Shown: positions 55,601-64,000 of the stretch, piece after piece
Layout: each line of letters begins with the position of its first letter
Numbering within the stretch: the first letter of the stretch is position 1
NCBI RefSeq assembly: GCF_003991155.1
Contig: NZ_CP031297.1
DNA from: Escherichia coli
GTDB lineage: Bacteria > Pseudomonadota > Gammaproteobacteria > Enterobacterales > Enterobacteriaceae
DNA length: 64,000 bases
Strand: one strand, 5' to 3'
Made by a program: the position numbers

Positions 55601-58600
55601 GCTGGTGTTAGTCTAGCTAACCGACGCCAGCGGCCAAGTGTTTGGAAGGCGAGCCATCATAGAGTCAGTAGAGAGAGATACTTTTGGAAATCAATAGTAT
55701 TATGATTGGTACAAATGAGTTGTAGCTCCATATTTTAAAGGGGGATTTCAGAGAAATGAAGAATAAGAAGGTAATAACTTTGATAATGGCCGCAGCCGCA
55801 TCATGCTCGTCAGTCTACGCCGCGACATTACCGACCAGTGAGGTAGACGCATACATACTTGCGATGAACACCATGTCACCTATCACTGCAAAGTACACCA
55901 TCCAGTACAAGCAAGCGGTTGAGCAGAAATGCAATACAGCCCTGAGCGTTGAGCAGCTCAACTCAAAGGCATTCACCAATGTTGTCCAGGCAATGGTGAG
56001 TAGTGAGACCGTCGATAGAATGGGGCTTGATGCTGCTGGTGGATCACTCCAGGATACCCTGTCTGTGATCGGCAAGAACGTCACATGCAGTGACCTGAAC
56101 GCGCCATTTAAAGCACTCTTGGATGATAAGGACTTCACCAGAAAGCATCAGCACCTATCGAAGGTGCTGCATACTTGGAATGAAGTTGTTTCTCAAAGCA
56201 AACCCTGAGTAACAAAAAGGAGCCTAACTGGCTCCTTTTTTAATGGGGATGATGTTACGTTCGTGGACGTTATTTTCACTCGGGATATGTAACGTTGAAA
56301 AAGGCGTACCGACAAGAGAGTGGTCACATAGCTCTCCATAATAGATGAGCGACAAAATCTCTTGCTCGTTGATTTTTCCCACCTTAAAAAGGTAATTGAT
56401 TATTGCTGTATCCAGTAGGTCGTGACACCCATTAAGCAGATCCACGATATTGGCCGCAGCTTCATTTTCCTCTCCGTCATCTCGACCGGCTAATACTGAT
56501 TCAACCCAAGCCTCAAGGCTCGGATGTCCCTCAGCGAGCTCTATTTGACGGCACTCGTTCTCGATCAACCCTGTGATTGCTTCGTTGAGCGTTCCGCCAT
56601 AAGTCGGCATGTTGAGAACAACTCCAAATCCGGGGATTTCTTTTTGGATTGGCTTCGCATCCTTGGGAGCTGATTTCAGCCACAGGAAAAACCAGATCCC
56701 AGAGCTTATGTCTTCCGGCTTGACCTGGTTGGCCGCAAGGAATTTGGAAACCTCGTTACAGATGATGCCATCTGGCGCTGCCATCTCGTAAATACCCGCC
56801 ATCAGATCTTCAAGGCTCTTATACATATTATCTCTCGCACCTGTACATGATGTTTTCACTATCGTTGTTAAGCGTTTTTTCAGCAAGTATGTTCCAGCGA
56901 GACATCTTATACCATTCCATCTAAATCTGTAAAATTACCGTATTACCGTAATTATGATAATTACGGTAAATAAATTTAAGTTCTTCTTGCTGTTGTTCTA
57001 CTTATTAAAATGTATCTTTGAAAAAGTAGAGTTTTTGGAATAGGATAGGTGGTGCTGAATGCCCACTTTTTACAAGGAGCGCGACCAGTGATTTTTGATG
57101 TAAGAGCGACCTTTGAAGTGGCACTCCAGACGGACACCCACCTGGTACTTATCGATCTGGATCAGGGAGCATCAGTTACGAACGATGCTGATGCAGTGAT
57201 CGCCTGGTTGGCCGCAAACCTCGAAGGTGGAATTGGAAAACGTAAGGTGTACTACCGGGACACCGATGGACGCTTTGATGAGCTCAAGGTTAATGCCGGT
57301 GCTTTTGCCGGATTTGCACCTTGTAGCGAAGGCCAGCAGACCACCTTGGCTGGGATGCTCGGCCAGTAACTTTGTGTGGAGAACTCGATGTTAAACAAAA
57401 ACAAATTTGAGAAAGTTTTAAAGAGAATCCTCGATAAGAACTTTGAGCGCTGCTCTATTTGCAGGAAACCATTCCCTGGACCGTGCCATACTTTTGCTGG
57501 TTTGGATTCGGACAATAAAGTTCAGAACGTAGGTTCTTGCTGTCGGACCAGTATTGTGGACTTGCGGCATGGAGGTGTGTATACGACCGCTCCTGTAGAT
57601 ACTCAAGAGGGGCAAAGTCAGGCGCATGAGCTACTCGCAACACATCCTTGTAAGGGGATGATGGGGCATGCTTAGCAAAAAAGTCTTTTTCATTAGTCAA
57701 GCGGAGGCCGAAAGACTGGAGCCGGTTCCCGGTGCGGCCATGATCTCCATAACTGACCCAGACAAGTCCCCTGCCGCTCTCGGACAGTGGGGGCAGTTGT
57801 ACCGCGATAGCTTCTATGACGGCGGCTATTCTGAGAACACCATCCACACGATGAAGGCAGCGTTCCGGATGAATTACGCCTCTTACATTGACTCATCCCA
57901 GGCTGAAAAGCTGTCCACCTTCCTGGATGGATTGGTTGGTAGCGGTATCGATCAGATCTTCGTTCATTGCTATTACGGAGAATCCAGAAGTGGCGCGGTA
58001 GCGCTGTACCTCCAGAACAAACATGGATTCACTCCGAATAAGCCGATCACCAAGCCCAACCGAACAGTTTACGAATTGCTGTGCAATCCAACCAAGTTTG
58101 AACCACTGATGCAAAGCTACGAAACGCAACATATGGAGGAGGAACTACCTCTTCACCTCAAAATATGGGATTTTCTTCTCGTTGCGGTCGGGCTTAGGAG
58201 GTGACTTTGCACGACACAAACAATGACAAGGAAGAGCTAGTTTCACATGCGAAAGTAAATGTTCCGGCAGAACAAAGCATTCGCGGTGAACTGTTGCCGT
58301 CATCGAGCTCGCTCCGGAACATCCAGGACAACCCCGCCGTCGCCTATCTGGTGAGCCTCGGGTCAAAGCGAAGCAGGCAGACCATGAGCTCATTCCTCAA
58401 CATTGTCGCCAAGATGATCGGGTTTCAGAACCTTCGTGACTGTGCATGGAGCTCAATGAGGCGGCACCACATATTGGCGGTGCTGGAAATGCTGGGGGAT
58501 GCAGGGAAGGCTCCGGCAACGATCAACACCTACCTGTCAGCGCTCAAAGGGGTGGCTCTTGAAGCCTGGACGATGAAGCAAATTGATACGGATAGCTTCC

Positions 58601-61600: not shown

Positions 61601-64000
61601 AAAACCGTTACCGCGCCAATGCCCCTGATCGTGCTCCAGGATAAGGATGTTCAGCTCAAATTGCTTCGTAACTTTGACGCCTCAGAACAACGCAAAACTC
61701 GATCTGATAAAGCGGCATCGGAAATCCTTGGCACCTTCGGTGGAGTCACTATCGAATCCTTCCCTGGATGAATCAGCGTGACCGCGTAACAAGGCTTTTC
61801 CGCAGCCGGAAGGGCTTTGTCCCACACAAACAATTCCAATCGACAGCAGCATGATATATAATTATGATAATTACCGTATTATCGTAATTATCGTAAACAT
61901 TACAAATTAAAAGGAACGTTCTCATGGCAAGAAAATTGGTTGAGTTTGACGATGTAGCGGCTGCGGCCCAAAAGCTCAAGGACGCCGGTAAACGCCCAAC
62001 GGTCATCGCTATCAGAGACATCATTGGCAAGGGGAGCTTTACCACCATTTCAACGTATCTCAAACAGTGGTCAGAGGAACACTCCCTCGATGAAGAGCTG
62101 GTAGAGGTAGTCCTTCCAGAATCGGTTATGAGCGATGCTGAGCTCTTCCTACAGAAGATCTATACGGTAGCCAAAGCAAGCGCCGATGAACAGCTTGAGC
62201 GCGAGCGTGAACTGCTACGACAGAAAGAAATTGAGTACCAGGAAGATATGCAGCAAGCCGTGGACATGGCAAATGATGCCACCGAACGGGCTGAGCTACT
62301 GGAAGAACAACTTGAAGCTCTCACCAACAAAAAATCAGAGCTCGATGCGGCCCTTGGTAAGGCAGAAAACTCGCTATCCCTCAAGTCTGCGGAGCTAGAA
62401 CGCTCACTGGCTGACATTGATAAGCTGGAAAAGCGGATCGTTGAGTTGGAGGGCAAGCTGGAGGCGAAAGCCGCAGATCTGACCCGAGCACAGGATCACC
62501 TGGAGCAAGCTAAAAGCGAAAATCGCTCTTTGAGCCAAAAATTGGCAACTACAGAGGGTGAGTTGGAGGAGCAAAAAGGCAAGAGTATAGAGCAGACAGA
62601 AAAGCTCCGGGCCGCTCAGGAACAAAAAACATCGTTGAAAGAGCAGCTCGAAAATGTACAGGCCAAACTGGCCCAATCACAGGACTCCCTTGCCACAGCC
62701 AAAGCTCATGGCGAATCCGCTGAACGAGAGTGCCAGCGCCTATCTGGAGAGGTAGAAAAGCTGGACGCCAAATTATCCAGCGCCGAAGCAGAAGCTCGCG
62801 CTCTTGTTCAAGACAAAGGCATGATGGCTGGTCAGTTGCAGGAAAAAGACCAGCAGGCCAAGAGCCTCGAACAAAGACTCAATGATGCACTGACCAAAAT
62901 TTCTGGGTTGGAGCAAGAGCTCGCTAAAGCTGGTAAGGGAGGGAAAAAGAAAGAGGAAAACTGATGGCGCGAAAGGCTAAATATTCAGAAGAGTGGCGAC
63001 ACAGAGCTGCGGCTCTTCAAACCAAGATTGAGGAGGCTATGACACTAGCCACCTCATCTATTGGCGACTATCGCTGGTTACACCGTCTCCATAGTTGGGT
63101 TACGGAGGTGGCTCAAGGTAAAGCCCCAGACTGGTGGACAGATCTGGATTGTGAAGTATCCCTCCCCCGAGAAGAAAAGCGGATCAGTACGTTCCTCTCG
63201 ACACAAAAGAAGCGCATCACTCTCCAGATGTGTTTGTCGTAGGGGGCCTCATGAAACAACTTCCTCCTGACACACCAGAACAATCACTGATCACTCAGTA
63301 CAAAGGGCCTCGCCTTGTCGTTAAGGCCTACGCTGGAACGGGTAAAACCACGACACTGGTGAAGTACGCCCACAACAACCTCGATTCACGTATCCTCTAC
63401 TTGGCATACAACAGGGCTATCCGCGACGAGGCAAGAGAAAAGTTTCCTGCAAACGTAGACTGCAAAACGTCCCACCAGCTTGCCTACGCCACTATAGGAA
63501 GGGGCTACCAGCACAAACTCTCCGGCAACCTAAGGCTCACCGATATTGCCCAAGCGGTGAATACCAAGAACTGGACGTTTGCCAAAGATATTCTCGATAC
63601 GCTCAACGCCTTTATGTGTAGTGCAGACATGCGGATTCTTTATACGCATTTTGCTCGCGCCGATACGGGTAAAGTGCTTACGTCCAAACAGGAGAGATAC
63701 CAAATCCAGGTGGTCGAAGGTGCTGAGCTCATATGGAAACGGATGACAAACGTTCAAGATCCGTTCCCGACCGTACACGATTGCTACCTCAAACAGTATC
63801 AGCTCGGGATGCCGAATCTGTCTCGCCGGTACACCACCATTCTTTTTGATGAGGCACAAGACGCTAACCCCGTAACAAGTAGCATCGTCCTACAGCAGAA
63901 CTGCAAGGTAATCCTGGTTGGAGATCGCCACCAGCAGATCTATAGGTTCAGAGGCGCAAACAACGCCCTTGATAGCAAAGAGCTCATGAACGCCGACCAA

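Follow-up and report, generated by a model that had tools for sequence, protein, structure and literature searches.

Why should a plasmid carry the same phased, AT-rich array at two places 4.9 kb apart, once directly upstream of the gene for a KfrA-type regulator and once beside a site-specific recombination site? We encountered this arrangement in a 64,000-nucleotide stretch of DNA from Escherichia coli (contig NZ_CP031297.1, assembly GCF_003991155.1), which we call the window and whose coordinates are used throughout unless another sequence is named. Its backbone is that of a plasmid of incompatibility group C (IncC, also IncA/C2): positions 56000-63000 match the IncC plasmid pSMO-2010K-0257 with 100% identity and 963 plasmid records with at least 99%. 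Much multidrug resistance is carried by such plasmids, whose maintenance functions are only partly mapped. Arrays of the same family precede kfrA genes on many otherwise unrelated plasmids, and we consider it probable that both IncC arrays are binding sites for the plasmid's own KfrA protein, which would repress kfrA at one site (site 2) and repress or modulate other promoters at the second (site 1).

Two phased arrays on the IncC backbone

The original prediction for this DNA described a perfect 12-bp inverted repeat in a divergent promoter region and a recurrence of its core next to a kfrA-like gene, and proposed that two promoter regions answer to one plasmid regulator, possibly KfrA. The inverted repeat is indeed perfect, but it had been placed ten bases too far to the right (at 56953-56979), although the start given for the whole region, 56944, was about right. 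The recurrence of the core is also real, as a 16-mer, TAATTATGATAATTAC, has exactly two occurrences (56949-56964 and 61859-61874) and ATTATCGTA is present at both 61878 and 61887. The elements in question are as follows.

56932-56972, plus strand: site 1 array, with units ATTACCGT, ATTACCGTA, ATTATGATA and ATTACGGTA starting at 56934, 56942, 56951 and 56960
56943-56969: perfect palindrome TTACCGTAATTA-TGA-TAATTACGGTAA inside site 1, also readable as 13-bp arms with a 1-bp spacer
61859-61899, plus strand: site 2 array, with units ATTATGATA, ATTACCGT, ATTATCGTA and ATTATCGTA starting at 61861, 61870, 61878 and 61887
61924-62964, plus strand: kfrA, with ATG at 61924, encoding a KfrA_N domain and a long coiled-coil tail

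Each site comprises four units of the form ATTAYNRTA, phased at 8 or 9 bp and containing a palindromic TAATTA core. The arrays can alternatively be read as palindromic TAATTA hexamers, one per array being cut to TATTA, with three variable bases between them; the phased series is then AAATTA, TATTA, TAATTA, TAATTA, TAAATA at site 1 and TAATTA, TAATTA, TATTA, TAATTA, TAAACA at site 2. The units of site 2 follow one another at steps of 9, 8 and 9 bp, and the last base of the array lies 25 bp ahead of the kfrA start codon. Both arrays have a G+C content of only about 22% and are rich in TpA steps.

An exact 16-mer repeat within 64 kb is unremarkable on its own, given that about one is expected for any 16-mer by our estimate, and TAATTATGATAATTAC has five matches at up to three mismatches against 0.15 expected. 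It is the array level, not the 16-mer repeat, that decides whether the resemblance is random. Four phased units in a row (ATTAYNRT at 8/9-bp steps) occur twice in the real sequence and never in 2000 shuffles that kept the local composition of 200-bp stretches; even three consecutive units were absent from the shuffles, and runs of two averaged 0.03. A search for further copies, which had been suggested as a check, confined the arrays to these two sites, with no run of even two units in the remaining IncC backbone (about 120 kb, in pieces L005, L143 and L006). A stricter null model, calling for four phased hexamers with at most one mismatch from TAATTA, was abandoned when it found no match even in the real sequence; it misses the arrays because one unit in each is the shortened TATTA.

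Neither chance frequency nor loss from related plasmids, the two outcomes named beforehand as speaking against the original prediction, was found, and the comparison with relatives also redefines the conserved element. Site 1 of IncA plasmids retains its four units in place between strongly diverged flanks. At site 2, IncA-type relatives carry the units ATTACGGTA, ATTACCGT, ATTA(C/T)GATA and ATTACC(G/A)TA. Because these relatives have lost the 16-mer at site 2 and kept the units, the shared element is not the perfect palindrome or the 16-mer, as was first thought, but the phased 9-bp unit with its TAATTA core.

The number of units is polymorphic among IncC plasmids and ranges from four to six, with five or six at site 1 in many plasmids and also at site 2 in others. 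Six units are present, for example, at site 2 of plasmid pKAZ5 and at site 1 of p_dm12b_NDM1. Among about 940 IncC records compared by using 100-bp queries, site 2 was matched at 99% identity or more in 565 and at about 91.7% in 325, the latter being 9 bp longer among the matches listed; approximately 35% of IncC records carry these 9 additional bp. For site 1, 514 records fell in bands of at least 95% identity and 415 in the 90-95% band. Among the matches listed, the former equal the query in length and the latter are 8 bp longer, and approximately 44% of IncC records have these 8 additional bp. Fewer than four units were seen at neither site among the IncC records whose arrays were read.

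Arrays precede kfrA on unrelated plasmids

A word-indexed protein search with the N-terminal domain of KfrA returned mostly IncC fragments. Distant homologues were found by an exhaustive HMMER search with the same domain, which yielded 1356 relatives, and we inspected the DNA flanking these genes at decreasing levels of identity. All inspected homologues with upstream sequence have an array of same-family units just before the start codon. The linkage reaches KfrA proteins of only 26-34% identity on plasmids with unrelated backbones, and includes IncA, pAsa4, Photorhabdus and at least eight metagenomic or other plasmids. Each of the following has an array upstream of kfrA; percentages refer to KfrA identity except where noted.

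IncA: 93%
A relative with 87% nucleotide identity
Photorhabdus: 70% in the N-terminal domain by search, 60% by alignment; ter present only as a remnant
pAsa4: 50%; the array includes a 15-bp perfect inverted repeat, AATCATAATTACGGT...ACCGTAATTATGATT
L017: 50%
L018: 47%; a syntenic site 1 array is also present
L019: 41%; Rep3 plasmid
L020: 42%
L021: 36%; Rep3 / ParA plasmid
L022: 34%; plasmid with a MobC relaxase
L040: 26-30%

Besides kfrA, no called gene of L019, L021 or L022 has an annotation (Ter, recombinase or other) that also occurs in the IncC region. We also reversed the search by choosing 120 genome loci only for the pattern TAATTA-N2-3-TAATTA-N2-3-TAATTA, and three of these have a KfrA_N gene starting 24-130 bp downstream. 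This triple pattern is unspecific in AT-rich genomes, where its matches (at least 120) are mostly due to chance, and a match is informative only next to a KfrA_N gene. The view that one regulator, possibly KfrA, serves two promoter regions now draws support from comparative evidence, as far as sequence comparison can provide it.

A separate observation concerns L017, in which a LexA-box-like sequence, CTGTATATATAAACAG (2935-2955), precedes a umuDC-type operon that is inserted between ter and kfrA (KfrA 50% identical).

KfrA and the kfrA promoter

The N-terminus of the IncC protein matches the KfrA_N DNA-binding domain (residues 9-121; PF11740, E = 8.8e-23). Residues from about 125 to 340 match coiled-coil families only (such as CENP-F_leu_zip, 4.5e-10, and Tropomyosin), which points indirectly to a long alpha-helical coiled-coil tail. 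Lineages that have the TAATTA core in common also conserve the putative recognition helix of KfrA, G-S-(F/Y)-(T/S)-T-(I/V)-x-x-Y-L-x-x-W, whose residues G37, S38, T41, L46 and W49 are invariant in our alignment of KfrA homologues. Upstream of the gene, a hairpin is followed by a predicted promoter and by the array, which reaches from the -10 hexamer to within about 25 bp of the ATG.

61789-61820, plus strand: hairpin behind ter with a 14-bp stem, terminator-like with a weak U tract (-21.4 kcal/mol, z = -2.7); in the IncA counterpart, TTTGTT comes next
61840-61868, plus strand: predicted kfrA promoter TCGACA-17-TATGAT from a consensus scan, with its -10 hexamer inside the first two units of site 2

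The closest analogue of the IncC arrays is the operator O_K bound by KfrA of the IncU plasmid RA3 (DQ401103), which we compared through its published description only. This operator, made up of five copies of a 9-nt repeat, TGTATTGTA, two of which are inverted relative to the other three, overlaps both the -35 and -10 elements of kfrAp; the intergenic region that contains it is 130 bp long and opens with a terminator (PMC7783346). In vitro, four units confer full affinity on RA3 KfrA, three reduce affinity about 3-fold, and two abolish binding (PMC7783346); the IncC variants seen have four to six units. The IncC system resembles this arrangement in having a KfrA_N domain joined to a coiled-coil tail and at least four units of 9-nt period and mixed orientation, positioned over the kfrA promoter, which in both cases follows a terminator-like hairpin in a short intergenic region. 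Even the unit cores are alike (TATTGTA in RA3, TATCGTA in IncC). However, the units as a whole differ, being TGTATTGTA in RA3 and ATTAYNRTA with a TAATTA core in IncC. Furthermore, RA3 has its operator at a single site whereas IncC has two arrays 4.9 kb apart, which is a difference in regulon size rather than in mechanism. Binding has been demonstrated for RA3 KfrA, whereas for the IncC protein we infer it from sequence.

Autoregulation by KfrA has been shown for the IncP-1 plasmids RK2 and R751 as well as for RA3 (PMC7821693, PMC7783346). IncC KfrA would likewise be a transcriptional autoregulator acting at its own promoter, although the RK2 and R751 operators, as described in these papers, differ from the IncC arrays in both sequence and architecture. 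The genetic setting of the gene is also different. In RA3, kfrA resides in a stability module near korB, incC and kfrC, and more generally the IncP-1/IncU type places it in a central control and partition module (korA-incC-korB ... kfrA-kfrB/C). IncC kfrA lies outside any such module, between ter and uvrD/traF and far from parAB (in the reference plasmid, parA/parB are at 30.5-32.5 kb and kfrA is at 105.8 kb).

Site 1 adjoins the RecHS recombination site

Site 1 lies in a known region. Hegyi et al. 2017 (PMC5587640) described a RecA-independent recombination hot spot, RecHS, in the Mob2 region of plasmid R55, between R55_128 and R55_196. Upstream of it they noted an inverted repeat, IR1, with 13-bp perfect arms and a 1-bp spacer, 27 bp from a second inverted repeat, IR2. 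Coordinate mapping equates window position 56900 with R55 119073, and so the palindrome at 56943-56969 is IR1 and the repeat at 56997-57030 is IR2. The minimal active RecHS clone (R55 119169-119224) begins one base ahead of IR2, and IR1 was dispensable for cointegrate formation in the published deletion series, which gave it no function (PMC5587640). The DNA is the same as that examined here, but the published account mentions neither the unit array nor the second copy ahead of kfrA, and draws no connection to KfrA. A literature search found no paper that reports the motif sequences, links IR1 to kfrA, notes its copy at the kfrA promoter or describes operators of IncC kfrA. The original prediction was thus correct but incomplete in viewing site 1 as part of a promoter region, as it is also located 27 bp from a recombination core. 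The limits of the divergent intergenic region are better set at 56826 and 57088 than at 56886 and 57049.

In the 5' to 3' direction, the genes are rhs, small open reading frames (ORFs), a leftward ORF of 200 amino acids (aa), the intergenic region, a rightward string ending with ter, then kfrA, a 92-aa ORF, uvrD and traF.

56224-56826, minus strand: 200-aa ORF, homologue of R55_128, pointing away from site 1, with no Pfam match and with ATG at 56826 as in RefSeq
56904-56933, minus strand: predicted leftward sigma-70-like promoter TTTACA-18-TAAGAT (consensus scan), whose -35 abuts or overlaps the first site 1 unit
56997-57030: RecHS core, IR2, TCTACTTATTAAAA-tgtatc-TTTGAAAAAGTAGA, 27 bp to the right of IR1, a published site-specific recombination site (PMC5587640)
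57018-57046, plus strand: predicted rightward promoter TTGAAA-17-TAGGAT (consensus scan), with its -35 in the right arm of IR2, 45 bp past the array
57088-61771, plus strand: rightward gene string as a whole, from the 93-aa ORF through ter
57088-57369, plus strand: 93-aa ORF, with GTG start at 57088 and ribosome-binding site AAGGAG
57376-57675, plus strand: 99-aa Cys-rich ORF (CSICRK...C...CC), with no Pfam match, between the 93-aa and phosphatase-like ORFs
57668-58204, plus strand: phosphatase-like ORF
58201-59217, plus strand: tyrosine recombinase Int
59222-60091, plus strand: 3'-5' exonuclease
60088-60579, plus strand: 163-aa ORF
60896-61771, plus strand: ter, encoding a Tus-like Ter protein (PF05472, E = 2.9e-46)
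62964-63242, plus strand: 92-aa ORF coupled to kfrA, found in many but not all kfrA loci

The array therefore overlaps the predicted leftward -35 element and lies 27 bp from the RecHS core, which in turn overlaps the predicted rightward promoter of the int operon. The block containing this rightward promoter is conserved in IncA, L018 and pESI. In L018, moreover, the site 1 array is found in IncC synteny and directly abuts a RecHS-like block.

Two unrelated IncF-type plasmids have RecHS-like cores (33-41 bp, 92-100% identical) ahead of tyrosine recombinase genes, at a distance of about 60-85 bp, and the one IncF-type recombinase compared (L144) is 61% identical to IncC Int. Plasmid pESI has a similar core followed by a homologue of the 93-aa ORF and then an int gene. 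The loci compared were window 56997-57030 with 58201-59217, L144 3001-4082, L145 3001-4108 and L013 2500-4052. Because the core and related recombinases are inherited together, Int is the likely cognate RecHS recombinase; these sequence data point to it as the enzyme that the 2017 paper left unidentified. They also suggest that the RecHS core doubles as a promoter or operator for the recombinase gene. No array is present at the RecHS-like cores of pESI and the two IncF-type plasmids, and therefore the array travels with kfrA and is not part of the recombination core module. Among Salmonella records, 351 match the 93-aa ORF compared to 214 that match KfrA, and these counts suggest that pESI-like plasmids lack a KfrA of the IncC type.

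The 99-aa Cys-rich ORF (57376-57675) is a called gene in pKAZ5 but is unannotated for the inspected IncC records in the gene tables of PLSDB, which are derived from RefSeq and incomplete.

A further set of protein sites occurs in the same backbone. IncC parS is a 22-bp inverted repeat with an invariant 14-bp symmetric core, present in about 14 copies per plasmid (PMC10954446). We found 13 copies of its core, TTTCACATGTGAAA, in the backbone pieces, one of them just upstream of parA. The 14-bp palindrome TTTCACATGTGAAA inside int at 58686-58699 matches the published description of the core, and therefore one ParB site lies between the two arrays. The arrays resemble such KorB-like ParB sites in that both are short inverted-repeat protein sites scattered in the IncC backbone, some over promoters. 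Unlike the arrays, however, parS has the core TTTCACATGTGAAA, occurs in 13-14 copies and has no tandem phasing. The possibility that the arrays are themselves parS was rejected, as neither contains this core.

Proposed mechanism

We propose that KfrA dimers, joined through the coiled-coil tail, would bind the TAATTA-centred units by using the N-terminal helix-turn-helix domain. Binding to units repeated every 9 (sometimes 8) bp would be cooperative and would need about four of them. At site 2, KfrA would cover the -10 hexamer and start region of the kfrA promoter and thereby repress its own gene. Autorepression is proposed here because the array covers these promoter elements, and on the predicted promoter position we regard it as likely. 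At site 1, KfrA would be situated between two divergent promoters and most likely represses or modulates them; the site might also serve as a second anchoring point for a KfrA scaffold. We hold binding at this second site to be rather probable.

Several points weigh against this proposal. The promoters at both sites are consensus matches only, and KfrA binding to either array is something we infer. The RA3 operator motif is unique to kfrAp, and a second site is therefore without precedent in the family (PMC7783346). Site 1 is located 45 bp upstream of the rightward -35 element, which is poor placement for simple occlusion, and no phenotype attaches to it because IR1 was dispensable in the recombination assay (PMC5587640). 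At a spacing of 9 bp, two helix-turn-helix units would have little room on the same face of the DNA. No second array is present in the 24 kb of pAsa4 that we inspected. In addition, the 92-aa ORF after kfrA, which co-occurs with it in many loci but not in all, is a less likely candidate for the binder.

It is conceivable, though doubtful, that KfrA at site 1 acts as an architectural partner of dimer resolution by Int and RecHS, either as an accessory factor that tilts recombination in favour of resolution or as a coiled-coil bridge that forms a 4.9-kb loop around int, the exonuclease gene, a parS copy and ter.

Alternative explanations

The arrays might be bound by another protein, with KfrA a mere neighbour. 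The 92-aa ORF deserves attention in this regard, as small ORFs come after kfrA in IncC, IncA, pAsa4, L018, L019 and L020, but the ORF is absent from L017, L021 and L022 and truncated in Photorhabdus, and the arrays persist in all of these. Other plasmid regulators or the host protein H-NS could also be considered. H-NS-type proteins favour AT-rich DNA with many TpA steps, and arrays of about 22% G+C would suit them well. IncC even encodes an H-NS-like protein, Acr2 (PMC4207636). However, generic binding to AT tracts leaves unexplained the strict 8/9-bp phasing, the invariant TAATTA core and the exclusive position before kfrA on unrelated backbones, and we judge it unlikely that a protein other than KfrA accounts for the arrays. 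A role in recombination is less probable still. Under this explanation, site 1 would provide accessory or arm-type sites that give architecture or directionality to dimer resolution by the RecHS tyrosine recombinase, and its likeness to the kfrA promoter would be secondary. The 27-bp distance to the core, the retention of this association in IncA and L018 (where array and core abut), and the presence of a Phage_integrase gene near several kfrA loci are all compatible with such a role. Against it, IR1 is dispensable for RecHS recombination (PMC5587640), the RecHS-like cores of pESI and the IncF-type plasmids have related recombinases (61% identity) and no array, and arrays precede kfrA at loci free of recombinases, namely the pAsa4 region, L021 and L022.

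Alternatively, the arrays might be nothing but slippage-prone AT-rich minisatellites without sequence-specific function, alike by chance or by common descent. The free variation in unit number, with 9 bp added in about 35% of records at site 2 and 8 bp in about 44% at site 1, is typical of replication slippage. Yet the arrays are kept while the IncC and IncA flanks diverge and across KfrA lineages with 26-50% identity, no IncC record that we read has fewer than four units, and the shuffled sequences produced no array at all; this explanation is very improbable. Finally, the location of ter (60896-61771; PF05472, E = 2.9e-46) between the two arrays makes it conceivable that the plasmid's Tus-like protein uses them as Ter-type sites. 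A Tus site is a single, asymmetric element that spans about 21-23 bp and contains a GTTGTAAC core, but the arrays are tandem and quasi-symmetric, and no core of that type is present in or beside either of them. The arrays also accompany kfrA in plasmids that have no ter (L019-L022) and persist in Photorhabdus, where only a remnant of ter is left. We consider this last possibility extremely remote.

Other elements of the window

The map of NZ_CP020913.1 is not collinear with the window upstream of about 56 kb, where the window has extra islands. Three element copies of about 1.37 kb, 93-94% alike, are located at 3865-5233, 39505-40884 and 47835-49214 (inverted). Each contains a 334-aa ORF, which from its sequence is probably an IS110-family transposase resembling those of IS4321/IS5075, and one copy abuts a 990-aa ORF that resembles a Tn3-family transposase. 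They serve as markers of resistance-island structures within the first 50 kb. Three copies of GTGATAATGCTGTTGTAATTTCAGCA (4600, 40245 and 48467) were initially taken as Ter-like; they are uninformative on Tus because they are carried by these three transposase elements. Further direct repeats of at least 300 bp and 100% identity in the resistance-island part (15905-16229, 33903-34227 and 38143-38467; and the pairs 20183-20597/31621-32035, 8900-9199/13784-14083 and 23192-23491/32198-32497) are probably copies of insertion sequences.

Closer to site 1, a 1417-aa Rhs/YD-repeat protein (50920-55173) followed by a small overlapping ORF (55145-55585) resembles a toxin-immunity pair. The Rhs C-terminal region and the immunity genes vary among IncC plasmids, and L001 has an immunity gene of the MafI family.

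Implications for IncC plasmids and the KfrA family

The IR1 palindrome itself was already published, and its counterpart at the kfrA promoter is mentioned in no paper that we found. The finding extends a known autoregulatory circuit; the mechanism is not new, but a second site beside a recombination locus is unusual. The phased TAATTA array can also serve as an easily recognized marker of kfrA promoters on many unrelated plasmids. Were KfrA to bind both arrays, IncC plasmids would gain a defined KfrA operator, and the unexplained IR1 next to RecHS would acquire a function. This would also be the first KfrA target beyond the protein's own promoter, and one that adjoins a dimer-resolution site. 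If the architectural role considered above were true as well, a single KfrA scaffold would physically tie together multimer resolution, partition and the termination of replication.

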